Positions 3,483 through 16,567 of a DNA stretch of 17,195 nucleotides are shown piece by piece. The DNA is taken from contig CBDUQR010000052.1 in assembly GCA_965369655.1 (NCBI GenBank), positions 1-17,195 of the forward strand, written 5' to 3'. Each line of letters begins with the position of its first letter. The stretch's first letter is position 1. Made by a program: the position numbers and the translations under genes. The notes beneath the pieces were generated by a model that was given only the letters and a program-made list of their open reading frames with translations, was not told the origin of the DNA and did not search any database. The stretch is from an uncultured bacterium (lineage in GTDB: Bacteria; Zixibacteria; MSB-5A5; JAABVY01; JAHJOQ01).

Positions 3483-5581
3483 TGCCAGAGACTTCGAAAG
3501 CATTGGGTCGAATCGGCAAGCAGTCCGACATATTCATGGCCCTGGCCGTAATCGGTATCCTGGTCGTGCTTGTGGTTCCGATACCACCGCAGTTTCTCGA
3601 TGTGCTGCTCGCCTTCAATATAGCGTTTGCGATTCTTATTCTGTTTACCACGCTATACATCACGAGGCCGCTCGAGTTCTCGGTGTTTCCGGGAATGCTG
3701 CTTGTTGTCACGCTAATGAGACTGTCTCTCAATGTGGCTTCTACACGACTCATTCTCGGCGAAGCGTACGCCGGTGAGATGATCAACGCATTCGGTAACT
3801 TCGTGGTAAAGGGCAACTATGTCGTAGGATTCATAATCTTCCTGATCCTGGTCGTCATCCAGTTCGTCGTCATCACCAAAGGCGCCGGACGAATCTCAGA
3901 AGTAGCAGCAAGATTTACACTCGACGCTATGCCCGGCAAACAGATGGCGATCGACGCGGATCTGAACGCCGGTCTGATATCCGAGGTCGATGCGAGATCC
4001 CGGCGCGATAGCATCTCGAAAGAGGCGGATTTCTACGGAGCAATGGACGGTGCCTCGAAATTTGTACGAGGCGATGCAATAGCCGGAATCCTGATAACGA
4101 TCATCAACGTCATCGGCGGATTCATTATTGGAGTCCTTCAGAAGGGTATGTCGCTGAGTGAAGCCCTGGCGACCTATACATTGCTGTCGGTCGGTGACGG
4201 TCTCGTATCACAGGTTCCGGCGCTGATCATAGCGACCTCGGCAGGTCTCCTTGTCACGCGCGCCGCTTCGTCATCGAATCTCGGCTCCGACATGACAGCT
4301 CAGTTGACGAACAAGCCGCGGGCAGTCCTGCTTGCATCGGCGATCCTGTTGGTATTTGCGTTCATGCCGGGCTTACCGTCGCTTCCATTCGGAATTCTCG
4401 GGATACTCGTCGGAGTGGCGGGAATAACTCTGGTTCGCACTCAGCGCGCGAGGGAAGAGAAAGCGCGCGGAGAGGCCGATGTCCAGCGCCCCGAGGGCGA
4501 AGAGACGCCGGAAGCGCAGGTGGAGGAATTCCTGAGACTCGACACGCTTGAACTGGAGATCGGATACGGGTTGATACCGCTGGTCGACGTCGAACAGGGT
4601 GGCGATCTGCTGTCGCGTGTCAGCATGATCCGCAAACAGCTCGCGCAGGAGATGGGTATCATCGTCCCGCCGATAAGGATACGCGATAACGTACAGTTGA
4701 AGCCGAATCAGTATGAGATAAAGCTCAAAGGCACAAAAATTGCTGAATATGAACTGATGGTCGATCACTTCCTCGCGATCAATCCGGGTAGTATCGATGA
4801 TGATCTCGATGGATTCAATACGGTCGATCCGGCATTCGGACTCAAGGCAAAGTGGATCATTTCGAACCTGAAGGAACTGGCCGAGATGAAGGGATTCACA
4901 GTTGTCGAGCCTGCCGCTGTGATCGCAACGCATCTTGCGGAAGTAGTCAAGACTCATTCTGCGGAGATTCTCACAAGGCAGGATGTGCAGAACCTGGTCG
5001 AGACTGTCAAGAAGGACTCGCCCGCGGCGGTAGAGGGAATCATACCTGACATCATCTCGCTGAGTATCATCCACAAGGTGCTTCAGAATCTGCTTTCGGA
5101 GAGAGTCCCGATCAGAGACTTGCAGTCGATCCTCGAAACGATGGCCGATTATGGAGAAGCTACGAAGGATCCTGATGTCCTGAGTGAATACTCGCGTCTC
5201 GCCCTGCGTCGCACGATTTCGAACATGCACATGAACAGCGACGGTAAGATCAATGTCTTTACGCTCGATCCCAGACTTGAGAGAATCCTGTCGGATTCGG
5301 TACAGGCACAGAAGACCGGATTGACATTTGTGTTGCCTCCTGAGATTTCGGAAGCGCTGCTCAAGAGAGTGACGGTTGAGGCTGAGAAACTCGCTGTCGG
5401 TGGGGAGACCCCGGTTGCGTTGGTGCCGGCCAATATCAGGCTGGCGTTGAGACGGCTGCTGAACTCAGTTCGTCCGCAAGTCTCGGTGCTATCATACAAC
5501 GAAATTATCCCTGACATAGAAGTTTATTCAGTTGCAATAATAGGATTAGGTGAAAATGCGGATCAGGAACTTTCAGGCTAA
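3482..5581 (+). CDS. flhA: Flagellar export apparatus protein FlhA
   Basis: FHIPEP motifs ISEVAARFTLDAMPGKQMAIDADL and DFYGAMDGASKFVRGD; 699 aa; ATG overlaps the flhB stop (TAATG). Confidence 0.99.
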   Translation: MPETSKALGRIGKQSDIFMALAVIGILVVLVVPIPPQFLDVLLAFNIAFAILILFTTLYITRPLEFSVFPGMLLVVTLMRLSLNVASTRLILGEAYAGEMINAFGNFVVKGNYVVGFIIFLILVVIQFVVITKGAGRISEVAARFTLDAMPGKQMAIDADLNAGLISEVDARSRRDSISKEADFYGAMDGASKFVRGDAIAGILITIINVIGGFIIGVLQKGMSLSEALATYTLLSVGDGLVSQVPALIIATSAGLLVTRAASSSNLGSDMTAQLTNKPRAVLLASAILLVFAFMPGLPSLPFGILGILVGVAGITLVRTQRAREEKARGEADVQRPEGEETPEAQVEEFLRLDTLELEIGYGLIPLVDVEQGGDLLSRVSMIRKQLAQEMGIIVPPIRIRDNVQLKPNQYEIKLKGTKIAEYELMVDHFLAINPGSIDDDLDGFNTVDPAFGLKAKWIISNLKELAEMKGFTVVEPAAVIATHLAEVVKTHSAEILTRQDVQNLVETVKKDSPAAVEGIIPDIISLSIIHKVLQNLLSERVPIRDLQSILETMADYGEATKDPDVLSEYSRLALRRTISNMHMNSDGKINVFTLDPRLERILSDSVQAQKTGLTFVLPPEISEALLKRVTVEAEKLAVGGETPVALVPANIRLALRRLLNSVRPQVSVLSYNEIIPDIEVYSVAIIGLGENADQELSG

Positions 5582-6638
5582 ATCAGTTTCGGAGGCCCTC
5601 AGGATGGTCAGGAAGGAACTCGGACCGGATGCGGTCATCCTCAAGACCACGCCGATGGATTCGAAGGGCAGCAGAATCGGCAAAAAGCTGTTTCAGGTGA
5701 CCGCCTGCATCGATGACGGTAGTCTCCATGCGAAGCGCGGGAGTGAACATCACACAGAAAAAGCGCGAGGCGTATCCTATTCGGATCTCGATGGAATCAA
5801 GGACGTGCTTCGGATTCTGCAGAAAGATGTCAGGTACCTCACGATGCTGAGCATGCCGTCGGGCAGAGATACTGGTCTCGACGACAAGCTCACATCCTGT
5901 TTCCACGATTTGACCGGCAGTGGAATCGATCCGGCGGAAATCGTGAGGATATTGAGAGAGGTTCAGGAGAGCGGAGTCGATGTCGCCGATGACGACATCG
6001 TCAGAAACGCGATTGCCGAGAACATGATCTCCAGCCTGACCGAACCGTTCGAGATCAAACAATATGCCGGAGGACCGAACAGTGTCGCGTTCGTGGGACC
6101 GCCCGGCGCTGGAAAGAGCTCTATGGCGGCGAAACTCGCATCTCACTTCGTAGTCGAGAAGAAGACTGCGGTGAAGCTCGTCAGTCTCGATGATTTCAGG
6201 CCTACCGCAGGAGATGAGTTGAAGAGATTCGCTGACGCCCTCGATGTGCCGTTCGCAGCGGAGGACTATGATCCAATCGGTGAAACGAAAGCGAGCGTGG
6301 TCCTGATAGACACGGCTGGAGTTCCCGTCGGAGCTGATTCTGAGCGGGACGAATTAAGATCGAAGCTCGACAAGTCAGGCGTTTCAGAAGTGCACCTGGT
6401 GCTTCCTGCATATTGTAGCGCGAATGACATGATCGACTGGTACGATTTCTATGTGCCGATCGGCTTGACTGCGGTGTCGATCGCATTTCTCGATCAGACG
6501 GCGAATTACGGTGCGGTCGTAAACCTGTCACTGGTTCGAGAAGCAAAGTTCTCGTACTTCTCGTTCGGACGTACATCATCGAAGAACCTTGAGAGCGCCG
6601 ATCCGGCGAAACTCGTCCGGCGAATGCTCGCGGTCTAA
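5556..6638 (+). CDS. flhF: FlhF-like SRP-family GTPase with degenerate motifs (start ATG 5556 or GTG 5550)
   Basis: N-terminus MRIRNFQAKSVSEALRMVRKELGPDAVILKT is typical of FlhF; G1 GPPGAGKS, G3 DTAG; sits between flhA and flhG. G4 reads AFLD rather than TKLD. Confidence 0.9.
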   Translation: MRIRNFQAKSVSEALRMVRKELGPDAVILKTTPMDSKGSRIGKKLFQVTACIDDGSLHAKRGSEHHTEKARGVSYSDLDGIKDVLRILQKDVRYLTMLSMPSGRDTGLDDKLTSCFHDLTGSGIDPAEIVRILREVQESGVDVADDDIVRNAIAENMISSLTEPFEIKQYAGGPNSVAFVGPPGAGKSSMAAKLASHFVVEKKTAVKLVSLDDFRPTAGDELKRFADALDVPFAAEDYDPIGETKASVVLIDTAGVPVGADSERDELRSKLDKSGVSEVHLVLPAYCSANDMIDWYDFYVPIGLTAVSIAFLDQTANYGAVVNLSLVREAKFSYFSFGRTSSKNLESADPAKLVRRMLAV

Positions 6639-6648
6639 GAGGATCACA

Positions 6649-7527
6649 ATGAGCAAGTTTGCAGAATTGAAAGATAAGCTGTCGAAACTCGAAAGGCCTT
6701 TCACGGTCGCTCTGACGTCCGGCAAGGGTGGGTCGGGCACGAGTTGGCTCTCTGCTTCACTCGCCGCCGATCTCGCATCACAGGGCGTCAGAACACTGCT
6801 CCTGGATGCGGACCTGGGGTTGGGCAATCAACATATTCTGGCTGGGCTGTCACCTGTGTTCAGTGTCGAGGATGTGCTTGACGGCGCGTGTGCGATTGAG
6901 GAGGCGACAATCGAACTCTCATCCAATCTGAGTCTTTTTCCAGCGCGATCCGGTCTCTCGGATGTCGAATTCATTCCGAGTCTGGAGATGAAGCAACTGG
7001 TCGGATCGCTCGCCTGGATAAGAAAGAATTTTGATATTGTAATCGTCGACGGCGGCGCGGGGATGTCGCAAAGGATCGCGACGGTGGCTGAGCTCACTGA
7101 CACTGTCCTGATAGTGACGACGCCGGATATTGCTGCCATAGCAGATTCATATGCCGTTGCGAAGTATCTCCTGCAGGGGAAATCAGTGTCGGAACTCGGG
7201 TTCGTCGTCAATCGTGCCGAGTCCGATGATGAGGGAAAGCGCACAGCGGAGAATCTTATCCAGATGACGACAAGATTCCTCGATTACGATGCGAAACTCA
7301 GCGTATACGTTCTGGAATCAGATGACTTCGTGATCGGCAAGACACTCCATGGAATACCCGATCCGGAATCCTGGAGCGAATCCTTGAGATCGGGGATACG
7401 GGCGGTCGCCGATGCAGTCGGTCAGACCATACCAGACGATCCAAGCCATTGGTCCGGAGCGCATTGGACTCCCACCCGGGCGATTTCGAAATTAAACAAT
7501 CAAATTAAACAATCAGATGATAGATGA
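6649..7527 (+). CDS. flhG: FlhG/FleN MinD-family protein with a degenerate Walker A (start revised to ATG 6649)
   Basis: VALTSGKGGSGTS, LLLDADLGLGN, IVTTPDIAAIADSYA and VVNRA motifs; GAGGA RBS before 6649; lies between flhF and fliA. Confidence 0.88.
   Translation: MSKFAELKDKLSKLERPFTVALTSGKGGSGTSWLSASLAADLASQGVRTLLLDADLGLGNQHILAGLSPVFSVEDVLDGACAIEEATIELSSNLSLFPARSGLSDVEFIPSLEMKQLVGSLAWIRKNFDIVIVDGGAGMSQRIATVAELTDTVLIVTTPDIAAIADSYAVAKYLLQGKSVSELGFVVNRAESDDEGKRTAENLIQMTTRFLDYDAKLSVYVLESDDFVIGKTLHGIPDPESWSESLRSGIRAVADAVGQTIPDDPSHWSGAHWTPTRAISKLNNQIKQSDDR
7489..7514 (+). repeat. Perfect 13-bp tandem duplication (AAATTAAACAATC)x2 in the 3' end of flhG
   Basis: Copies read directly at 7489-7501 and 7502-7514. 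Confidence 0.95.
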
Positions 7528-7611: not shown

Positions 7612-8373
7612 ATGAACGCGAAGGAGGAAATCTGGCAGGCGTATCGCCAGACGGGTGATCCGGTTGTCAGAGAAGAGCTTCTTACCAAGTATCTGCCTCT
7701 TGTGAAGAACGTCGCCGGACGTATGGCGATGGGCTTTCCCAAGTCGGTCGAGCTCTCGGACCTTGTCAACACCGGCGTTATTGGCCTGATAGAGGCCTTC
7801 GGCAATTTCGATCCAGAGAGAGGCGTGAAGTTTGAAACCTACGCGGTTCCTCGAATTCGCGGCGCGATTCTTGACGAACTCAGAGCGCTCGACTGGGTGC
7901 CGAGATCTACCCGTGCCAAGTCTCGCGAGATCGAACGCGCGCTGGTTTCCCTCGAAAACGATCTGGGTCGAACACCCAACAACGATGAGCTTGCGAAACA
8001 GCTCGACATGACGCTCGCCGAGTTGCATCGCGCGCTCAGCGATGTATCGAGTACGACGATCCTCTCGCTCGACGAGATGATCTACGGCGAGGAAGATAAT
8101 CGTCAGATCCCTCGGATAGAGACGATTGAAAACCACTCAAACGGCAGCATTATCGGCAGCATCGAGAAAGATGAACTCAGAGCCTATCTTGTTGTCGCGA
8201 TCGCAAACCTGACAGAGCAGGAGAAGCTTGTTATCGCGCTCTACTACTATGAGGAGTTGACTCTCAAGGAGATCGGCGAGGTTATGAGTATCTCGGAATC
8301 TCGCGTATCGCAGATTCATACGAAATCGATAATGAAGCTTCGAGGAATGGTGAGGGAGAAGTTCGGCCTTTAG
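7612..8373 (+). CDS. fliA: Flagellar sigma factor sigma-28 (FliA/WhiG/SigD family)
   Basis: GLIEAFGNFDPERGVKFETYAVPRIRGAILDELRALDWVPRS and the region-4 HTH LTLKEIGEVMSISESRVSQIH; AAGGA RBS. Confidence 0.98.
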   Translation: MNAKEEIWQAYRQTGDPVVREELLTKYLPLVKNVAGRMAMGFPKSVELSDLVNTGVIGLIEAFGNFDPERGVKFETYAVPRIRGAILDELRALDWVPRSTRAKSREIERALVSLENDLGRTPNNDELAKQLDMTLAELHRALSDVSSTTILSLDEMIYGEEDNRQIPRIETIENHSNGSIIGSIEKDELRAYLVVAIANLTEQEKLVIALYYYEELTLKEIGEVMSISESRVSQIHTKSIMKLRGMVREKFGL

Positions 8374-8389
8374 AGGATGATCGTGTGAG

Positions 8390-8665
8390 ATGGTCAGACC
8401 GATTGACATTGCGGATAACGTGGCGAAAACACCCATAGCGGAGAAGGTCACCAAGATCGACAAAGCCGCTCCGGAGTTGGATCAGCGTCAGTTTGCGGCT
8501 CAACTCGAAAAACAGCAGGTCAGCAAGCAGCAGCAGGCGACTCCGACGCCCAAGACCGATGAAGTGATCATTCACCGTGAGAAACCGAAGCAGGAAGAAA
8601 AGAGCAAGAAGAAGAAACAGGACAAGAAGAAGAAATCGGATGTTCACCTCGACCTGAAAGCATGA
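8390..8665 (+). CDS. Small K/Q-rich hypothetical protein, probably flagellar-associated
   Basis: GAGGA upstream, operon spacing; RPID N-terminus and HLDLKA C-terminus flank a low-complexity middle. Confidence 0.75.
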   Translation: MVRPIDIADNVAKTPIAEKVTKIDKAAPELDQRQFAAQLEKQQVSKQQQATPTPKTDEVIIHREKPKQEEKSKKKKQDKKKKSDVHLDLKA

Positions 8666-8675
8666 GAGGGCATGG

Positions 8676-9014
8676 ATGAGCAATTATCAGATATTGGAAA
8701 TCGCGCTCGACGTCGCTTTTTTCGCGACTGTCACATCGGTTATGGTCATCTTCGCGATAGTGCGTGAAAGATATATCAGGAAGAGCCTGACCGAGCAGTC
8801 CGGAATGGTGAAGTTTCCCGAAGCGCTTGCCGAAGCCGGATCGCCGATCCCGTCGGCAGATGATATTTCGAGCGGACACAGAAAGAAGGACAGCGGCAGG
8901 AATATCCCGAGTCGCGTCGGGGCGGATAAAGTTACTGCTGCGGGACGCAGGAGACTGTCGAGATCGGAGATGGAACTCATGAGCAGTCTGTCTTCGAGTA
9001 CTGGAAGAAGTTAG
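8676..9014 (+). CDS. Single-pass membrane hypothetical protein, weakly SwrB/DUF2802-like
   Basis: N-terminal TM (ALDVAFFATVTSVMVIFAIV) and C-terminal LSRSEMELM helix; GAGGG RBS; two genes after fliA. Confidence 0.65.
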   Translation: MSNYQILEIALDVAFFATVTSVMVIFAIVRERYIRKSLTEQSGMVKFPEALAEAGSPIPSADDISSGHRKKDSGRNIPSRVGADKVTAAGRRRLSRSEMELMSSLSSSTGRS

Positions 9015-9028
9015 TTGAAAGGGTTGTT

Positions 9029-10219
9029 ATGAAGAATGATACACCGTTTTATCTGCAGAAGGTCGAGTGCCCTGTGTGCAAGGCGATCAATGAGTTCGAG
9101 GCGATCAAGGTCGGAGCTTACGAGGAAGAAGGAAGGGATACTGACTTCAGGCCGATCGACGTGAAATGGAAGAACCCAAAGTACCAGAAGTTCAGTCCGA
9201 TCCTTTTCTTTATGGCCACCTGTTCGAACTGCTATTTCACGAGAGAATACACGGCTAAGTATAAGGATTGGAAGAACGATACAGCGTTCAAGAACTACAG
9301 GCTCAAGACCCAGAAGCGGAGACACACGGTCCATGTGACACAGGACGGCTCGGTGATAAAAGAGATTGGGAGTCGTCTCGATCCGCAGTCGTATCCACTC
9401 CAGACGGCAATCAGCAAGCTGCTCATTGGAATCTACGATGAATTGCTTCTCGACAGGCCGTCGAATCTCGATATTGCAAGGTATTTCATTCGCGTGGCAT
9501 GGCTCTTCAGAGAGGCGGGAAACTCAGAGAATGTGGAACAGAATGTCTTTCTCGGATATGTGTCGGCGCTTGACGATCAGGTGAAGAGTCTGAAGCAGCT
9601 TCACCAGCGATTTCGAGATGTGCAGGCCGGAGTCAAAACCGCAGTCGCGAATCATCTGGAGGACACGAGTTTTACCACTGACGAGATTAGCGAAGAGTTG
9701 AAAAAAGGCTACAATCAGGCGCTTACATTTCTGGCTGGCGCCGATGAACGGATCGAGTCTGCTGTAATGCGATTCGCAACGACATGCCAGCTCAGCAACG
9801 ACAGTTTTGTCACTACGGGTGGGGATGATGTGTTGTCGATGCCGTTTGCAGGGCAGTCATCGTACAGAGGATTTCTCAGGAGCCTGAAAGACAACTGGGA
9901 ATATGCTCCGGCATCCGAGCACGATGCGCTCAAGTTCTCTTTTGAGTTTTACAAGAATGCGTACGAAAACGGTCACGAAGTGAGCGAGGGCAACCAGCAG
10001 ATACAGGTGGAGTACCTGCTCGGAGAGGTGAGCCGACGGCTTGGCAGGCATGAGGAAGCCAAAGGGTATTTCAACAATGCCGTCAGAAGCGCACAGCAGT
10101 TTATCTACCAGCACAAGGGCGAAAGTGCGAGAACCGCTTTGGCGAGGAAGATATATGAAATGGCGCTGGCGCAGGGGAAGCAGAATTTGAAGGAAGCGCA
10201 GAGTGCCGCAACGCAGTAG
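9029..10219 (+). CDS. DUF2225-like zinc-finger/TPR protein with a central helical insertion
   Basis: CPVC ... DTDFRP ... CSNC (two CxxC), RVAWLFRE, and C-terminal TPR-like YLLGEVSRRLGRHEEAKGYF. Confidence 0.75.
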   Translation: MKNDTPFYLQKVECPVCKAINEFEAIKVGAYEEEGRDTDFRPIDVKWKNPKYQKFSPILFFMATCSNCYFTREYTAKYKDWKNDTAFKNYRLKTQKRRHTVHVTQDGSVIKEIGSRLDPQSYPLQTAISKLLIGIYDELLLDRPSNLDIARYFIRVAWLFREAGNSENVEQNVFLGYVSALDDQVKSLKQLHQRFRDVQAGVKTAVANHLEDTSFTTDEISEELKKGYNQALTFLAGADERIESAVMRFATTCQLSNDSFVTTGGDDVLSMPFAGQSSYRGFLRSLKDNWEYAPASEHDALKFSFEFYKNAYENGHEVSEGNQQIQVEYLLGEVSRRLGRHEEAKGYFNNAVRSAQQFIYQHKGESARTALARKIYEMALAQGKQNLKEAQSAATQ

Positions 10220-10264
10220 AGAATCGGAATCCGTCCGCAGTTGATGCGGCAGGGAGGACAGATG

Positions 10265-10777
10265 ATGTCAGTCAATACGAAGACGGAAACGCAGGACACG
10301 ATTTGGTCCGTGCAGACAGAGGAGCAGCACTCTGAGGGGGCGGTGCAGAGACGCAGATATGTTCGCCTCGATATCACATCGCAGATAGACCTTAAGCTGA
10401 TCGTATCGGAACCTGAGCAGGGGGGATTCATCCCGTTTTGTGGCGAAGTCCTTAACGTTTCCGCAGGTGGTGTCCTGATCGAGTCGGAGGAAGCGATGCC
10501 GGAGGACGCCTACGTGATGATGGAATTCGAGTTGAACGGGAGCGACAGAATATCTGGAGTCGTGGGCAGAATCAGACGGTGTGAAACCGAGAGCGACAGC
10601 AGTCATCTTATTGGCGTCGAGTTTTGCACTTCAGAAGACATCGCGCAGAAGTGTCCTCTTGAGTGCAAGAAGCTTCTGGACGAGGAATATTGCAGCTTCG
10701 ATGACAAGGTCAGACAGTTGATAAACCGTTATGTCTTCAACCGCAAGGTTCAGGAAAAGGCCGAGGAGGCTGAGTGA
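10265..10777 (+). CDS. PilZ-domain (c-di-GMP receptor) protein (start ATG 10265 or 10262)
   Basis: QRRRYVR (RxxxR) and NVSAGG (D/NxSxxG) motifs, IGVEF; GGAGG RBS at 10253-10257. Confidence 0.9.
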   Translation: MSVNTKTETQDTIWSVQTEEQHSEGAVQRRRYVRLDITSQIDLKLIVSEPEQGGFIPFCGEVLNVSAGGVLIESEEAMPEDAYVMMEFELNGSDRISGVVGRIRRCETESDSSHLIGVEFCTSEDIAQKCPLECKKLLDEEYCSFDDKVRQLINRYVFNRKVQEKAEEAE

Positions 10778-11394
10778 TGACCGCGCGACGCCTGATCGTA
10801 ATTCCTGTAATCCTGCTGCTTCTCGGTGTAGCATTGCTTTATGGCGGAAGGGAAAGATCATTCGCTATTGTCTATAACGGAGCGCAGACAGGATTCCAGG
10901 AACTTCAACTGACCGAAAAAATATATCATCAGATGGCCGGTCATCCCGCCGTAGAACTGATCAATCCTGAAGTCTGCGACAGCATCAGGAATGAATACCC
11001 CGAATTCACCGGCAGGTATTTCGACAAGGACCTGATGGTCGAGATGGCGGAACTGGCGGGAGCGAGATACCTCGTGTGGATAAATGTCGAGGAATCGGAC
11101 GTCAGGAAATCGGCGCGCACATGGATACCGTACGTCTTCAAGAGTCATCATCGGAAGTGCGTGCTGAGCATTCGGATGTTCGTGGTGGATGCGTTCAACG
11201 GCAAGATCGTGCTGGCGCGATACTACAGCAAGAACAAACGCGGGCCAGCCGTCATGTCCTGTCTCGATTATGATCCAGATGATCCAGGCCTGATCCAGTC
11301 GTACTCAGAGGTCCGAGAAAAGTTCAATGAACTGGAGGAAGAGATCTCTGAGGAGTTGGTCGAGGAACTGGTTCAGATTATCTACCGAAGGTAG
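10774..11394 (+). CDS. Exported or membrane-anchored hypothetical protein, possible CsgG/TolB-N/FlgO-like fold
   Basis: N-terminal basic plus hydrophobic segment (RRLIVIPVILLLLGVALLYGG); pattern LAGARYLVW...IRMFVVDAFNGKIV; GTGA overlap with the PilZ gene stop. Confidence 0.7.
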   Translation: MMTARRLIVIPVILLLLGVALLYGGRERSFAIVYNGAQTGFQELQLTEKIYHQMAGHPAVELINPEVCDSIRNEYPEFTGRYFDKDLMVEMAELAGARYLVWINVEESDVRKSARTWIPYVFKSHHRKCVLSIRMFVVDAFNGKIVLARYYSKNKRGPAVMSCLDYDPDDPGLIQSYSEVREKFNELEEEISEELVEELVQIIYRR

Positions 11395-11402
11395 CCATTG
11401 CA

Positions 11403-13193
11403 ATGTCCGACTCCGCCGTCAGACAGGCAGCAGTATCTCTCGCGGTCAAGTTCGATATTCATCGATTTGAGCTCCCGGCATTTGTTGTTGCGAACGATGG
11501 ACATACGGTAACTGTCAACCGCAGACTCGCCGAATACCTCGGATCAGACTCAGACAACGCCGAAATCGAGTTGTCATTCAAAAAATTGCAGGAATACCTC
11601 GGTACGGTCCTCCAGAGAAAGGTCGAGAGAGTTATTGGAAGCGGAGTTTCCTGCAGGATGCCGGATGTCGTATTCACACATTTCTCCGGAGGCTGCAGGC
11701 GCGCCGACATTATGCTTTCTCATTGCACCGACGTCGATCGTGCGCCGGGCTGTCTCGGTCTGCTCATAGACTCTACGGAGTCATGGATTCTCGAAAAGAA
11801 ACGGAGCGCAATAGAGAACGAACTCTCAATCGTCTCACAAGTCAGCGCCCAACTCGGCTCCACAATGGAGACCGATGAGATAGTTAAGATTATTCTCATT
11901 GCCGTGACAGCGAGGGAAGGTCTCGGGTTCAACAGGGCGTTCCTGATGCTGATCGACGATGCTCATCGGGAGCTTCACGGGCACCACGCAATAGGTCCTG
12001 TCGATTCCGAGGAGGCTGGACGGATATGGGGCTCGATTCCGGATGAGGGAAAGGATCTTAAGAGCGTCATCGGCAGCTACATTCGCGATATTCGCTTCGA
12101 TGAGACAGCCTGTGACCGCGCAATAAGGCACCTCGTACTGCCGCTGAGTAAGGCCGGGAATCCAATATCGAGAGTGGCTTTCGGTCGAACGCCTGCGCTG
12201 GTAGACGAAAGTGAAGCGCTGCAGTCCGTGCGCGCCATCAGCGGCGGTCTCTTCGGTGATTCCGAGATTGCCGTAGCGCCGTTGAACGCCAAAGAGAGCG
12301 TTTTGGGTCTGATTATGGCAGACAACAAGATAACAGGTCGTGGAATCCGAGAGAGCGATATCGACCAACTGCAGATGTTTGCCAATCAGGCCGGGCTTGC
12401 GCTCGAAAGATCGCGCCTCTATGAGAGCTTACAGACAAACATCGAGGAACTCGAAAATGTCAACCTGGAGCTGGAGAGAAGCCATCGGGAGATCGTACAG
12501 ATCGAAAGACTGTCGCTGATGGGTGAGATGACGCATCGGATCACTCACGAACTGCGCAATCCTCTTACGATCATAGGTGGATTTGCGAGTCTTCTTCTAA
12601 GGTCAAAGGAAATCCCCGACTCGGAGCGGGAACGGGCGGAGATCATCTGGACGGAGTGCAGGAGAGTCGAGCAGCATCTCGACGCGCTGCTCGATTTCTC
12701 GAAGTCGTATTCTGAGGGCGAAAACGATGTTGATTTTTCCATGCTTCTGAGCGATGTCGTCTCGATGGTGCAGTCGAAATTTGCGCAGGCGAAGAACAGT
12801 CTCCGCTACAGGAGCTCAGGAACAGGAGTACTTCTGCGGGTGCGCAGAGATCTTCTGATGCACGGAATATTCCGCCTTCTGGAACTGCTCTCTGAGATCG
12901 TCGGTCCGGGCGTCGAATGGGAGGTGACATGCATCAATGCACCGAATGAGATCAGGGCGGAGATCTATGTCACGAGCAGCCAAATGTCTCATGATGAGTC
13001 GACCGATCTTCTCAGGAGATTCGTGGAACATGGGGCGAGTACGTCCGACCTGCGATTGTCGCTTGCCAACGAGGCTATCGCCTACGACGGCGGCGAACTC
13101 GGGTTCGAGATACGTGAGAATCGGCCGATAATATATGTAGCTTTTCCCATGCAGGAGAATACAGATGGACAAGCGAATTCTGATCGTCGATGA
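11403..13193 (+). CDS. Cytoplasmic PAS/GAF histidine-kinase-like protein with an intact H-box and a degenerate ATP-binding domain
   Basis: PAS-like N-terminus, GAF (GLGFNRAFLML...LGLIMADN...FANQAGLALE), coiled coil, HELRNPLTIIGGFA; no recognisable N, G1 or G2 boxes. Confidence 0.85.
   Translation: MSDSAVRQAAVSLAVKFDIHRFELPAFVVANDGHTVTVNRRLAEYLGSDSDNAEIELSFKKLQEYLGTVLQRKVERVIGSGVSCRMPDVVFTHFSGGCRRADIMLSHCTDVDRAPGCLGLLIDSTESWILEKKRSAIENELSIVSQVSAQLGSTMETDEIVKIILIAVTAREGLGFNRAFLMLIDDAHRELHGHHAIGPVDSEEAGRIWGSIPDEGKDLKSVIGSYIRDIRFDETACDRAIRHLVLPLSKAGNPISRVAFGRTPALVDESEALQSVRAISGGLFGDSEIAVAPLNAKESVLGLIMADNKITGRGIRESDIDQLQMFANQAGLALERSRLYESLQTNIEELENVNLELERSHREIVQIERLSLMGEMTHRITHELRNPLTIIGGFASLLLRSKEIPDSERERAEIIWTECRRVEQHLDALLDFSKSYSEGENDVDFSMLLSDVVSMVQSKFAQAKNSLRYRSSGTGVLLRVRRDLLMHGIFRLLELLSEIVGPGVEWEVTCINAPNEIRAEIYVTSSQMSHDESTDLLRRFVEHGASTSDLRLSLANEAIAYDGGELGFEIRENRPIIYVAFPMQENTDGQANSDRR
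13105..13131 (+). promoter_or_regulatory. Candidate internal sigma-28 promoter upstream of the first response regulator
   Basis: TCGAG(13105-09)-N14-GCCGATAA(13124-31); perfect -10, 33 nt before ATG 13165. Confidence 0.55.
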
Positions 13194-13521
13194 CGAGGAA
13201 AACATCAGGAAGCTCTACTCGGCTGAGTTCTCTGCCGATGGGTTTCAGGTTATGACAGCCGACTCGGGGGAGGCGGCGATACGAACCATAGAAGAGGACG
13301 AACCCGACCTGGTAGTGCTCGATATCAAGATGACCGGGCGCGATGGACTCGATATCCTCGGGTCGCTGAAGAAGCGAAACGGGAAGCTGCCGGTGGTCCT
13401 GAATTCGGCCTACACTACCTACAAAGATGATTTCAATTCCTGGCTCGCGGATGCCTATGTTGTCAAATCATCCGATCTGGTCGAACTGAAAACGAAGATC
13501 AGGGAGTTGCTCAAGGCATGA
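13165..13521 (+). CDS. Single-domain response regulator (CheY-like REC)
   Basis: ILIVDDE, VVLDIKM (phospho-Asp), LNSAY and YVVKS motifs; CAGGAG RBS. Confidence 0.95.
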   Translation: MDKRILIVDDEENIRKLYSAEFSADGFQVMTADSGEAAIRTIEEDEPDLVVLDIKMTGRDGLDILGSLKKRNGKLPVVLNSAYTTYKDDFNSWLADAYVVKSSDLVELKTKIRELLKA

Positions 13522-13880
13522 CGGAGAGATCCGAACTGAGGGCGAGCCTCAGCGCTGAAGTTGAGCCATCCGATCTCGAAACGATCGTCGAAGAAATAAG
13601 GCTGTCGGCTCTCAATATGGCGATCAATGCAGCCAGGCTGAAGTTGAGCGGCGAGTCGAGATCAGTGATTCGCAAGAAAATCAGCGATCTCATCAATATA
13701 TCGCTCGATACTGTTACCCATCTGGCTCAGGTTTTCGACGCCATGCGCAGCGGGTCCCATGAGGAAGCCGATGATCCGTCGGTGTTCATTGATGAACTTC
13801 AGACAATCGAGACTACAATCCGGGATCGGTCAGCCGAAGTGATGGATATGTTGAAACGTGCAGGCCTTGGCGAACAGTAA
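13518..13880 (+). CDS. Small soluble protein resembling a chemoreceptor (MCP) signalling-hairpin tip
   Basis: IRLSALNMAINAARLKLSGESRSVI aligns without gaps to the MCP tip TNLLALNAAIEAARAGExGRGFAVV; ATGA-coupled to the upstream receiver; GGGAG RBS. Confidence 0.7.
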   Translation: MTERSELRASLSAEVEPSDLETIVEEIRLSALNMAINAARLKLSGESRSVIRKKISDLINISLDTVTHLAQVFDAMRSGSHEEADDPSVFIDELQTIETTIRDRSAEVMDMLKRAGLGEQ

Positions 13881-13893
13881 CAGCCTCGAATAC

Positions 13894-13939
13894 TGCTCCG
13901 GCAGCCCTGAGGTGCCATCGAGCATTGTTTTTCTTCTTT
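13894..13939 (+). terminator. Putative intrinsic terminator
   Basis: Imperfect GC-rich hairpin TGCTC-c-GGCA-g-CC/CTGA/GG-TGCC-atc-GAGCA followed by TTGTTTTTCTTCTTT, just after the stop at 13880. Confidence 0.5.
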
Positions 13940-13974
13940 GAAGCCGATTTCACCAACGTTTTTACTGGCGCCAC

Positions 13975-14001
13975 TTCAGAACGGAGCAATTGCTCCGATA
14001 T
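13975..14001 (+). promoter_or_regulatory. Candidate sigma-28 promoter overlapped by a perfect 16-bp palindrome
   Basis: TTCAG(13975-79)-N14-TCCGATAT(13994-14001); palindrome CGGAGCAATTGCTCCG at 13982-13997. Confidence 0.6.
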
Positions 14002-14032
14002 AGTGAACAGACCAAATGGAGAGGGTTTGACA

Positions 14033-14647
14033 TTGGTGAGAAGCAATGGACGGCTGCTGTTGATTGTCACATCCGAGGGCGGACCGCCTGTCGTGCATTC
14101 CCTGCTTTCGCAGCTTCCGCAGGACTTTCCAGTTCCGATCGTGTTGTACGCAGGATTTGCGGCCGGAGCGCCTGGGCCAATTTGCAACGCCTGGAACAAG
14201 ACGACATTTCTTACCGTCGAGGCCGTATCTGAGACGATCATGCTCGATGGGGGTAAAGTCTTTGTCCTGCCACGGAATATGCGCGCTCGTATAGGGCGTT
14301 CGGGAAATGGTCTCAAACTTGCCGTCGATACGAAAGCGGCTGACCGTCAGACCTCCGTGCTGGTCTCACTCATTCGTTCGGCTGTTGATTGTCTGGGTGA
14401 GGGGCTTTTCATCGTATTGAGCGGAGGATTAAAGCGAGACTCCCAATCGGTAATCGAGGGAGTGAAGCTGGCTGCGGAGGGTAACGCGGGAATCTGCTTT
14501 GCGGCAGATCCGGCGCTCAGTTCGGCTGAGATTGCTACGGAGATACCATTGGGTCAACTCGGAATACCCTCCACATCCGCCGACGAGCTTGCGAGAAGGC
14601 TCTTGCTTGAATATGAACGTACGAATACTGTTAAAAGCACGAATTAG
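14033..14647 (+). CDS. Stand-alone CheB methylesterase-like domain, degenerate, no receiver domain (start TTG 14033 or GTG 14036)
   Basis: IVTSEGGPPVVHSLLSQLPQDFPVPIVL matches CheB IGASTGGPxAL..LP.DFP.PIVI; GKVFVLP matches GxVYxAP; YAGF stands where CheB has VQHM; GGAGAGGG RBS at 14018-14025. Confidence 0.8.
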   Translation: MVRSNGRLLLIVTSEGGPPVVHSLLSQLPQDFPVPIVLYAGFAAGAPGPICNAWNKTTFLTVEAVSETIMLDGGKVFVLPRNMRARIGRSGNGLKLAVDTKAADRQTSVLVSLIRSAVDCLGEGLFIVLSGGLKRDSQSVIEGVKLAAEGNAGICFAADPALSSAEIATEIPLGQLGIPSTSADELARRLLLEYERTNTVKSTN

Positions 14648-14651
14648 AATG

Positions 14652-14678
14652 TTCAGCGGCTGCACAATCTGCCGATAA
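14652..14678 (+). promoter_or_regulatory. Candidate sigma-28 promoter upstream of the second response regulator and the fapA-like gene
   Basis: TTCAG(14652-56)-N14-GCCGATAA(14671-78) in an intergenic gap; perfect -10. Confidence 0.7.
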
Positions 14679-14722
14679 TTATGTGAGAAGAGCGGTACAA
14701 AATTTTGCGGACGGGGGAACAT

Positions 14723-15133
14723 GTGGAAAAGGCTTTACGCGTTCTGGTTGTAGATGACGAGGCGATTCTTCGGACTCTCCTCGAAGGAATTCTCAAGAAG
14801 GAAGGATACGAGGTGTCCTCTGTGGAGTCTGTTCAGGCGGCTCTCGATAAGCTTGAGAACACTCAGATTGAGATAGTTGTATCAGATATTAACATGCCCG
14901 GCACCGATGGTTTCGAGCTTCTGCGCAGGGTCAAGAAGGATTATCCCGACATTTGCGTGATCATGATGACCGGATATTCCGACGCTTTCTCCGTCAAAGA
15001 CGTATTGATGCTCGGTGCTGATGACTATATAACGAAGCCGTTCAAGAGTCTGGAGATCAGTATGATAATCGAGCGTGCTTACTGGAGATCGCTCTCAGGG
15101 AAAGAAAGCCCGGTCGGCGCATCGCCGGAGTAG
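14723..15133 (+). CDS. Single-domain response regulator (NtrC-type REC; start revised to GTG 14723)
   Basis: VLVVDDE, VVSDINMPG, MMTGY and YITKPF motifs intact; GGGGGA RBS. Confidence 0.95.
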   Translation: MEKALRVLVVDDEAILRTLLEGILKKEGYEVSSVESVQAALDKLENTQIEIVVSDINMPGTDGFELLRRVKKDYPDICVIMMTGYSDAFSVKDVLMLGADDYITKPFKSLEISMIIERAYWRSLSGKESPVGASPE

Positions 15134-15139
15134 TATCCT

Positions 15140-16567
15140 ATGGCCGTCGTAGCGACAGCATCACGGCAACTCAAGAGCAGATCGGGATTCTGTATTACGG
15201 TTTCCAACGATGAGTTCAATGCCTTTCTCACGCTGACATCATCAGAAGAGAATGCCCAGGGAATATCAGAAACTGAACTCGTCGAGGAACTGAAGCAGGC
15301 TGGAGTTGTCTTCGGCCTTCTCGATGAAGATCTGCGCAATCTCGCTGAGAATCAAGTCTTTGATAAGAAGATTCTCGTTGCGCGCGGTAAACCGCCGCAT
15401 ATGGGGAAAGATGCTCAGATAGAATACTCATTCGGAATCAGTGAGAAAAAAGCTCCGACAGAGGGTAGCGACGGTCGAATCGATTATAAGAACCTCGAGT
15501 ATATACAGAATGCTTCCGCAGGGGAAATACTCGCGAAGAAGACTCCGCTCACCGAGGGTTCTCCAGGAAAAACAGTATTCGGCTCAGACATTCCGTCGCA
15601 GCCGGGTCGCGACAAATCCATCGGAAAAGGCGCCAACACCTCTCTCTCCGAAGATGGCCTTGAGCTCAAGGCCGACATAGACGGTTCGATTGTATTCACC
15701 AGTGGTATCACCAATGTTCTCGCTGTTCAGACGATTTCAGGTAGTGTTGATGCATCCACCGGCAATATCGAGTGCAATGGATCGTTGAAAATCACGAAGG
15801 ATGTCAAGAGCGGTTTCAAGGTCAGGGTGAAAGGTGATCTGGAGATCAGCGGCCATGTGGAAGACGCGGAGATCGAATGTGAAGGAAATGTCATCGTAAA
15901 ATGTGGTTTCTTCGGTAGCAGCAGCGGCAGCGTCAAGGCTAAGGGCGATGTCACAATCAAATGGGTCAACGGGCAACAGGTCCACTCAGACGGGATGCTG
16001 ACAATAGGTGGAGAGGCTATCAATTGCAGGCTCTATGGCAAGGAAGGAATCGTTATTCTGGGATCCAAGGGCAAGATCTCCGGCGGTGAGGCTGCTTCTC
16101 GAAATATGATACGCGCGCCGGAACTCGGCTCTGAGGGTGGAGCGACAACGCATCTGAAAGTAGCGTTCGATGCCAAGATTCTGCAGCAGTTGAAACAGGT
16201 AGAGGCCGAACTGGAGCGCATCAACGAAGATCATAAGCGTGTCAAGGAAGGCCTGACCGCGCTGTACAGGCTGCAGATGGACGGGAAGCTATCGCCAGAG
16301 AAAGAGGCGGTGCTCATGAAACTGGAAGTGTTTTTGAAGAGCGTTCCCGAGAAGAAAGCAGAATATGAGGTGAATCGCGATGCACTCCTCGGAAAACTCA
16401 AGGAGATCGCAAACGCCGAGATAATCGCCGAACGGAAAGTGTATCCTGGCGCAATAGTGCATTTTGGCGTTGTCTATAAAGAGATAGTCGATGCGAGAGG
16501 AGCTACGAGGTTCCACATCGACTACGACAGTATTGTAGCCTCGGAATACTCTCCATCATCTGATTAA
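15140..16567 (+). CDS. fapA: FapA/DUF342 family flagellar-associated protein
   Basis: LKQAGVVFGL, VARGKPP..GKDA, GRIDYK, PGKTVFG, VDASTGNI, beta-helix-type repeats, C-terminal coiled coil and VYPG. Confidence 0.85.
   Translation: MAVVATASRQLKSRSGFCITVSNDEFNAFLTLTSSEENAQGISETELVEELKQAGVVFGLLDEDLRNLAENQVFDKKILVARGKPPHMGKDAQIEYSFGISEKKAPTEGSDGRIDYKNLEYIQNASAGEILAKKTPLTEGSPGKTVFGSDIPSQPGRDKSIGKGANTSLSEDGLELKADIDGSIVFTSGITNVLAVQTISGSVDASTGNIECNGSLKITKDVKSGFKVRVKGDLEISGHVEDAEIECEGNVIVKCGFFGSSSGSVKAKGDVTIKWVNGQQVHSDGMLTIGGEAINCRLYGKEGIVILGSKGKISGGEAASRNMIRAPELGSEGGATTHLKVAFDAKILQQLKQVEAELERINEDHKRVKEGLTALYRLQMDGKLSPEKEAVLMKLEVFLKSVPEKKAEYEVNRDALLGKLKEIANAEIIAERKVYPGAIVHFGVVYKEIVDARGATRFHIDYDSIVASEYSPSSD

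Follow-up and report, generated by a model that had tools for sequence, protein, structure and literature searches.

A conserved cassette of two-component and chemotaxis homologues with lost catalytic motifs at the end of a flagellar gene cluster in Zixibacteria

To our knowledge, conserved pseudoenzymes of bacterial signaling are few and comprise DivL, ChpT and Spo0B. ChpT of Caulobacter and Spo0B of Bacillus consist of a DHp domain with a phospho-accepting His and a CA-like domain that does not bind ATP, and both act between receivers; in DivL it is the His that has been lost. The activity of CheB depends on a Ser-His-Asp catalytic triad, and the FapA protein of Vibrio is linked to EIIA-Glc. 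The DivL–DivK couple of Caulobacter has been described as a pseudo-histidine kinase paired with the single-domain receiver that it reads (PMC4211667, PMC5361649). FapA/DUF342 is a flagellar assembly protein of V. vulnificus with a named homologue in H. pylori (PMC13277936, bioRxiv 10.64898/2026.10.23.761471), which the 2026 preprint (bioRxiv 10.64898/2026.10.23.761471) ties to the flagellar cage and stator. Here we analyze a six-gene cassette with relatives of these proteins, located at positions 11403..16567 of contig CBDUQR010000052.1 (assembly GCA_965369655.1) from an uncultured Zixibacterium of sediment; the whole contig of 17,195 nucleotides is referred to below as the window.

The window is a single plus-strand gene array of 17.2 kb, as defined by its open reading frame (ORF) list, Pfam and NCBIfam, and forms contig C52 of a 2.99 Mb genome (100 contigs, estimated 99.5% complete) whose nearest named relatives carry the label Candidatus Zixiibacteriota. 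The cassette closes the fliOPQR-flhBAFG-fliA cluster and contains, in this order, a degenerate histidine kinase (psHK), a receiver (REC1), a putative receptor-tip remnant (mini), a CheB-like protein (psCheB), a second receiver (REC2) and a FapA/DUF342 protein. All six are uninterrupted plus-strand ORFs in the order given by a first-pass annotation of the sequence, with families as assigned by Pfam, and the translational coupling that it proposed for several of them agrees with a 29-nt overlap between psHK and REC1, a 4-nt overlap between REC1 and mini and a gap of 6 nt between REC2 and FapA. The spacer before psCheB measures 44–155 nt depending on the start codon, and that before REC2 57 nt. 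We hold it somewhat probable that this is a Zixibacteria-specific cassette in which two-component and chemotaxis parts have been kept by selection after catalytic loss, with a sensor that retains only its His and with REC2 and FapA as its output. The literature searched, supplementary files excepted, contained no account of the cassette, in line with its having been called undescribed.

The first gene encodes psHK (11403..13193, +), a PAS-like/GAF/HisKA protein in which the H-box His is intact and the ATPase (CA) domain is degenerate. Pfam recognizes HisKA (1.3e-11) and GAF, with no match to HATPase_c at E<=0.01, and a PAS_4 match was obtained at residues 21–129 of the orthologue from the related locus L037. 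Ten orthologues align over their full length, at 30–74% identity to the window protein, and the H-box HELRNP, the IGGFA that comes next and a motif of the GAF domain are invariant in all of them (10/10). The C-terminal 160–170 residues were aligned with homologues that Pfam scores as HATPase_c (4.2e-23 for L039), and the CA-like domain of psHK turned out to be positionally homologous to intact ATPase domains. The N-box Asn, the DxGxG of the G1 box, the F box and the GxGxG of the G2 box are all replaced in eight of eight crown-group orthologues, whereas these four boxes are intact in five of five comparison kinases, one from a Zixibacterium (L039) and four from the outgroup (L083, L062, L045 and L092). 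psHK keeps the phospho-accepting His together with Glu at H+1 and Asn at H+4, the two positions required for the phosphatase activity of HisKA proteins. Because all four boxes are replaced while His, Glu and Asn are kept, the prefix pseudo applies to ATP binding alone: the name pseudo-kinase used in the first-pass annotation holds for the lost ATPase domain but not for the H box, with its His invariant in 10/10 orthologues. From the sequence we infer that psHK would be incapable of autophosphorylation. In some Zixibacteria a short extra protein is encoded directly upstream of psHK, a GAF-HisKA protein without ATPase domain in L037 (6635-7522) and a GAF-only protein in L048 (5785-6600).

Like ChpT and Spo0B, psHK combines a DHp His with a kinase-derived CA domain devoid of ATP boxes, and two single-domain receivers are present in its operon. 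Unlike them, it carries PAS and GAF sensor domains, matches no phosphotransferase family (HisKA and GAF only in Pfam, and only kinase models below threshold in NCBIfam) and demonstrably derives from a normal HisKA kinase, its orthologue being intact in one early Zixibacterium; phosphotransfer by psHK is a prediction. The likeness to DivL–DivK lies in a predicted partnership between a protein derived from a histidine kinase and a single-domain receiver, and the NCBIfam DVU0259/DivK-type model gave a sub-threshold score with REC1 (51 bits against a cut-off of 160). Unlike in DivL, the His of psHK is invariant and it is the ATPase domain that has been lost instead. The receiver next to psHK is REC1, whose gene overlaps the psHK 3' end, and this pairing is conserved both within and outside Zixibacteria. 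Since psHK has retained both the His and the surface with which its ancestor acted on REC1, the most likely role for it would be that of a phosphatase or phosphotransferase.

The invariance of the His and of the DHp domain would also suit an active kinase, if the His of psHK received its phosphate in trans from a second histidine kinase that lends its CA domain to a heterodimer, or through a non-canonical nucleotide site; psHK and REC1 would then form an ordinary two-component pair. psHK has indeed kept a CA-like domain of full length, in which the YNGGxxG stretch is among the conserved positions, and the extra GAF-HisKA protein adjoins psHK in some Zixibacteria (L037). However, all four ATP-binding boxes are gone in 8/8 crown orthologues and no partner kinase is encoded in the window or in the conserved neighborhood, which leaves this account unlikely.

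Both receivers are intact, as had been noted for the window: the acidic pair, the phospho-accepting Asp, the Ser/Thr and the Lys are invariant in 13/13 sequences of REC1 and in 10/10 of REC2. REC1 (13165..13521, +; Response_reg 5.5e-22), a single-domain receiver and the ancestral partner of the kinase, is 52–90% identical across relatives and displays an invariant YK..F.SWLA stretch that constitutes a conserved surface motif. REC2 (14705..15133, +; Response_reg 1.1e-30) is likewise a single-domain receiver, with an invariant ERAxWR tail in a conserved C-terminal extension.

The third gene, mini (13518..13880, +), encodes a helical protein of 120 residues that is assigned by position and by transitive profile links to the signaling tip of methyl-accepting chemotaxis proteins (MCPs). 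No Pfam family matches it above threshold, MCPsignal (PF00015) included. The profile of 12 mini sequences from close relatives, in which Asn33 is invariant and Glu25 nearly so within a core motif resembling a receptor tip, found the tip of Aer as its best match in the PDB (E 0.0084). A crown mini profile matches the proteins encoded at the same position in L036–L038 (4e-8 to 2.5e-7), and a profile of the L036 and L037 proteins in turn matches the sole MCP of the genome (3.4e-6) as well as the window mini (1.6e-4); the L037 protein by itself scores 3.2e-4 with PF00015. When a 20-sequence mini profile was run against 1.84 billion representatives, 11,029 matches were obtained at E<=1e-3. Among the 150 matches listed, 34 were scanned (19 long and 15 small). 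All 19 long proteins are MCPs, and their best profile stretch falls mostly inside the PF00015 stretch; PF00015 was found below threshold in 6 of the 15 small ones and clearly in one protein of 152 residues. An ESM Atlas look-up with mini, to be taken as a lead only, returned clusters of hypothetical Zixibacterial proteins first and then an MCP cluster (0.92).

In the alignment with the genome's MCP, mini covers the tip and its vicinity (about 110–115 residues), and its Asn falls at the conserved Asn of the MCP tip. The AlphaFold2 model comprises three helices (residues 17–40, 46–77 and 87–114; pLDDT 68). A Foldseek search of the PDB with this helical model retrieved unrelated bundles, with no match at E<=0.001. 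mini resembles the MCP tip (PF00015) in a core motif around Asn that aligns with the MCP and Aer, and differs from an MCP in its length of about 120 residues, in the missing sensor, HAMP, membrane and methylation regions, and in a three-helix model of moderate confidence. We read it as a diverged MCP-tip remnant, too short for an adaptation region and linked to receptors through intermediate sequences. Of the earlier term mini-MCP tip, the MCP relationship is supported through these intermediates, but not by a direct MCPsignal match. An Hpt (histidine phosphotransfer) protein was ruled out by the lack of a conserved His. The genome contains only one full-length MCP (C1:60628-62709, −; single PF00015 match), adjoining a CheW; for a bacterium that has flagella and a complete cheA/B/R set, this is a very small number of receptors.

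A different function has to be weighed for mini, that of a CheZ-like auxiliary phosphatase or an effector of REC1, for which the MCP ancestry would no longer matter and with psCheB as a separate component. The gene always comes directly after REC1, even in lineages without psCheB, and is translationally coupled to it by the 4-nt overlap; the invariant Asn33, the nearly invariant Glu25 (among close relatives) and the strongly conserved surface motif of REC1 would also fit. Yet MCP tips have a conserved Asn at the same place, so that the invariant Asn of mini may be structural, and no known phosphatase motif or family was matched in Pfam or NCBIfam. We consider this role quite unlikely.

The fourth gene encodes psCheB (13925..14647, +), a stand-alone homologue of the CheB catalytic domain without a working triad (PF01339 CheB_methylest 3.5e-12, 46.9 bits, cut-off 24). 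Its start is uncertain, either TTG 13925 or GTG 14036, the latter after a strong GGAGAGG Shine-Dalgarno sequence, and a protein database entry begins at GTG 14036. The ORF spans 203–240 residues and the match corresponds to the catalytic domain only, with no receiver domain. CheB chains are the best matches of the sequence in the PDB (3SFT, E 2.4e-5), and the AlphaFold2 model (pLDDT 83.8, pTM 0.84) retrieved CheB structures as all of its nine best PDB matches in Foldseek (E 1.4e-12 to 1e-5; TM 0.61–0.75, normalized to the model). The triad columns were located by aligning 12 psCheB orthologues with the true CheB of the genome, and also from the PDB chains of CheB. In the nucleophile column nine of the 12 have Ser, the window protein among them; the same-genus relative has Tyr there, and two others have Asp. 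The catalytic His is present in a single orthologue (1/12) and is replaced by Ala in the window, and the Asp column is not conserved, with the window protein possibly keeping its Asp. Conservation is complete or almost so in the GGPP loop and in the first beta-alpha units. The designation pseudo-CheB is therefore right as to the His, which is lost, but the window protein keeps the Ser and possibly the Asp.

Compared with CheB (PF01339; 3SFT, 1CHD, 1A2O, 6YMZ), psCheB has the same fold and a family score over the Pfam cut-off; unlike CheB, it has no N-terminal receiver, lacks the His in 11/12 orthologues and the Ser in some, and its gene adjoins that of a receptor remnant without adaptation region. 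An enzyme with an altered active site, for instance a Ser-based hydrolase acting on mini or another protein, would account for the Ser in 9/12 orthologues (including the window), for the invariant GGPP loop around it and for a fold that is well predicted. Against such an enzyme stand the change of Ser to Tyr in the same-genus relative and to Asp in two others, the absence of His in 11/12 and the unconserved Asp column, and also the 120 residues of mini, too few for an MCP adaptation region; it is accordingly judged improbable. A canonical CheB split into two genes was ruled out, REC2 lying downstream and not upstream of the CheB-like gene, and both the scores of the psCheB profile and the lengths of the matched frames setting psCheB clearly apart from true CheB. 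As a whole, the cassette contains no protein that qualifies as an active HisKA kinase, an active CheB or a full MCP.

The last gene encodes a FapA/DUF342 protein (15140..16567, +) in which both Pfam domains score far above their cut-offs (FapA_N 2.1e-44, 151.5 bits, cut-off 27; FapA beta-solenoid 1.1e-54, 186.4 bits, cut-off 31), as expected from its earlier description as FapA-like. It shares with known FapA/DUF342 proteins both domains and the flagellar gene context, and differs from them in the receiver gene located 6 nt upstream and in that no link to EIIA-Glc is evident. A metagenome protein of 592 residues (P0238) is a FapA_N-FapA-REC fusion with the receiver at its C-terminus, confirmed by Pfam, and is the only such fusion among 113 FapA homologues (E<=1e-10). 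This single Rosetta-stone case hints that receivers act on FapA. FapA is also the last gene of the cluster in L018, the one relative checked; there it is followed by the housekeeping genes for a radical SAM/DUF512 protein, the Der GTPase, RlmN and a TonB receptor.

The same gene order had been suggested as something to look for in relatives, and it was found. A first tblastn search with the window proteins covered 12 loci from 12 related genomes, in all of which (12/12) psHK, REC1 and psCheB are present, as is a mini ORF (six by tblastn and six by position, all aligned), and the order psHK-REC1-mini-psCheB is kept in every one; a separate REC2 occurs in 10/12 and FapA in 9/12. A second set consisted of the best 80 of 229 tblastn-confirmed psHK relatives on contigs of one genome per species, nine of these 80 loci being on the same contigs as loci of the first set. 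Among the 80, a mini match was seen in 23, a psCheB match in 19 and all six genes in 15. The gene order holds across three families of Zixibacteria at 16–45% identity. In 201 genomes of the phylum, the psCheB profile gave short, high-scoring matches of the psCheB type in 23, distributed over families f1 (5/5), f2 (3/3) and f5 (15/17); its other matches lie in longer frames (~305-431 residues), score lower and were taken as true CheB. The ratios of nonsynonymous to synonymous substitution (dN/dS), estimated gene by gene against the same-genus relative at saturated dS, are 0.087 for psHK, 0.015 for REC1, 0.20 for mini, 0.15 for psCheB, 0.07 for REC2 and 0.11 for FapA. No stops or frameshifts were found in the window ORFs or in the aligned orthologues of relatives.

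These results bear on the possibility that the cassette is what remains of a second system, for chemotaxis or two-component signaling, now decaying and without function under relaxed selection. Such a remnant could be expected from the loss of catalytic motifs in two proteins, from the complete che set elsewhere in the genome and from the IS256-family transposase fragment just downstream of FapA at the contig end (16825-17193, −; NCBIfam 2.1e-15). It is nevertheless already contradicted by the absence of stops and frameshifts, the order kept in three families at 16–45% identity, the dN/dS of 0.015–0.20, the invariant H-box and receiver residues, and the fact that orthologues share the same losses, which are hence old and retained; very little likelihood is left to it. 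The first-pass proposal of parts repurposed under selection and not decaying thus stands. The motif losses were found to be common to the crown orthologues, as that proposal anticipated, but the ATPase boxes are intact in L039 and in the four outgroup kinases.

Comparison of the variants suggests how the cassette was assembled. L039 has an intact kinase, REC1 and a mini-like ORF followed by FlgN and FliW, and L042 is similar by BLAST, its kinase lying outside the Pfam scan. In L048 and L054 the extra GAF protein, psHK, REC1, a mini-like ORF and REC2 are present, followed in L048, the one of the two covered by the Pfam scan, by flgF/G, flgA, flgH and flgI. L036–L038 contain psHK, REC1, mini and two receivers, and no psCheB or FapA match was found in them. 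An ORF of 116–131 residues follows REC1 in every Zixibacterial variant examined. Since the kinase, REC1 and mini occur together in variants without psCheB, mini does not solely serve psCheB. Outside the phylum, a kinase and a REC1-like receiver (44–62% identity to REC1) were found in records labeled Latescibacterota, Acidobacteriota and others, with no mini, psCheB or FapA. This pair adjoins glycogen-type genes in L045 and L092 (a glgC-like NTP_transferase, GalT and GH57) and comes after a gene with a tRNA-editing domain in L062 and L100, neighbors which suggest that the ancestral pair was metabolic and not flagellar. The kinase, REC1 and mini are the core, present in all Zixibacterial variants seen, to which psCheB and FapA were added later in a subclade. 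Assembly is likely to have begun with the entry of the kinase-REC1 pair together with mini into the flagellar locus, followed by decay of the ATPase domain and then by addition of psCheB; FapA is likewise confined to a subclade.

The first-pass annotation had also placed three sigma-28-type promoters in the cassette. The sigma-28 (FliA) consensus consists of a −10 element GCCGATAA and a TAAA −35 element about 15 nt upstream. Exact copies of GCCGATAA do occur at 13124..13131 (+), within the 3' end of psHK and 34 nt before the REC1 start, and at 14671..14678 (+), in the spacer between psCheB and REC2, but the third element, TCCGATAT at 13994..14001 (+) before the psCheB GTG 14036, is only a near match to the −10 sequence, and none of the three has a −35. 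A scan for the full consensus found one site in the window, before fliA and outside the cassette, where shuffles would give 1.6. When up to one mismatch is allowed, the octamer occurs 24 times in the window and 13.3 times by expectation, a modest enrichment reached by 1/200 shuffles. Among relatives, exact GCCGATAA precedes psCheB by 19–44 nt in six loci of family f2 and REC2 in L013, L021 and L022, and a −10 element is found before psCheB or REC2 in 9/12 loci. These elements are consistent with FliA-dependent internal promoters, without amounting to proof of them.

With their catalytic parts lost and the receptor cut down to its tip, psHK, psCheB and mini are probably relay or binding proteins. 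psHK would dock REC1 and exchange phosphoryl groups with it, at a rate set by its PAS and GAF domains, and could behave as a signal-controlled phosphatase or, in the manner of ChpT or Spo0B, transfer phosphoryl groups between REC1 and REC2 through its His. Phosphorylated REC2 would then act on FapA, and thereby on flagellar assembly or motor behavior. For mini and psCheB a role in binding and not in catalysis is proposed, with each other, REC1 or the CheA/CheW array as partners. A more far-reaching version can be imagined, in which a developmental switch of chemosensory descent would operate with neither an ATP-using kinase nor a methylation enzyme. mini and the dead CheB would form a scaffold, maybe within a single-receptor CheA/CheW array, that presents REC1 to the His-only PAS-GAF sensor; phosphoryl groups would pass from REC1 to the His and on to REC2, and phosphorylated REC2 would switch FapA and so decide whether, where or when a flagellum is built. 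We regard this version as doubtful; if true, it would represent a new class of phosphorelay, with chemotaxis proteins used purely as architecture.

Several observations weigh against the favored reading of a selected, repurposed cassette with output through REC2 and FapA. The relay and binding roles of psHK, mini and psCheB are predicted from sequence comparison, for the phosphate donor there are just candidates, namely another kinase, CheA and acetyl phosphate, and the Ser of 9/12 psCheB proteins leaves room for a non-canonical activity. REC2 and FapA are absent downstream in L020 and L023, and FapA was not found in L014 although about 2 kb of sequence follow REC2 there. The dN/dS values are rough, because dS amounts to 1.1–4.1 and is saturated. 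The links of mini to receptors are indirect: in its own genome the 12-sequence profile, like the single sequence, matches nothing but mini at E<=10, and a 14-sequence crown profile ranks the MCP second of 21,519 frames with an E value of 0.81. The rows from L039, L042, L048 and L054 entered the broad mini alignment by position and motif, not by score, and taken alone they match the MCP of the genome at 1.9e-7 and the window mini just at 0.046. Finally, a TAAA −35 element at 14–16 nt is absent for all three promoter-like elements, although the consensus may not be that of this phylum.

As regards the surroundings of the cassette, no cheA, cheW or cheR was found in the window by the Pfam scan, in agreement with the first-pass annotation, and the canonical set that it proposed to seek elsewhere is indeed present in the genome: contig C32 carries a true CheB (369-residue frame), CheR and a CheA-type frame that includes a CheW domain, contig C1 a CheW next to the sole PF00015 match, and contig C83 another CheW-domain frame. 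Upstream, Pfam and NCBIfam identify fliO, fliP, fliQ, fliR, flhB, flhA, flhF and flhG, and then fliA (7612-8373, +). Between fliA and the cassette lie small ORFs of 91 (8390-8665, +) and 112 residues (8676-9014, +), both without family, and genes for proteins with DUF2225/TPR (9029-10219, +) and PilZ domains (10241-10777, +) and for an exported protein resembling FlgT_M (10774-11394, +), the last three assigned by Pfam and NCBIfam. The block from fliA to the cassette (7612..11394, +) is kept in synteny with the cassette among relatives. Within its part after fliA (8390-11394), DUF2225 and PilZ are found in constant order across Zixibacteria and the 91-residue ORF and the FlgT_M-like gene mostly so, whereas the 112-residue ORF was found in family f1 only and some relatives have two PilZ genes. 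A recent horizontal island was ruled out by the even GC content of the window (0.49–0.55) and the phylum-wide synteny of the cassette. Among the listed sequencing runs containing the stretch there are DNA runs only and no RNA run.

FlhF and FlhG, encoded upstream, had been called degenerate as well, which proved true of the G4 Lys of FlhF and the Walker A Lys of FlhG, but G1 to G3 of FlhF are intact and the FlhG loss is restricted to the window and its same-genus relative. In FlhG (6589-7527; also L105:1501-1800) the P-loop reads KGGSGTS, with the Walker A Lys changed to Thr, compared with KGGVGKS in 12 other Zixibacterial FlhG proteins. The same-genus relative (G001) has KGGVGTS, so the loss of Lys is a genus-level trait and no sequencing error, and an FlhG without this Lys may hydrolyze ATP abnormally. 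FlhF (5550-6638) keeps G1 (GPPGAGKS), G3 (DTAG in the window) and the G2 Arg, which is Lys in 2/12 relatives. The G4 motif reads AFLD in the window and T[FQ][VL]D in 12/12 other Zixibacteria, the usual Lys being gone in a clade-wide departure from the GTPase specificity motif.

The cassette brings together in one operon a histidine kinase and a CheB homologue, from two different families of enzymes, with a receptor remnant, all pared to probable binding or relay cores. The sequence of events can be dated in relative terms, from an intact kinase in an early Zixibacterium and in other phyla to the loss of the ATPase in the crown group, with the CheB-like gene and FapA coming later. It offers hypotheses that can be tested with purified proteins, namely phosphatase or phosphotransfer activity of a His-only sensor, the function of a tip-only receptor and a receiver-FapA output, and FapA/DUF342 would gain a candidate upstream regulator. 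For a phylum without cultured members, the locus represents a natural experiment in which two-component and chemotaxis parts would have been rewired for flagellar control.

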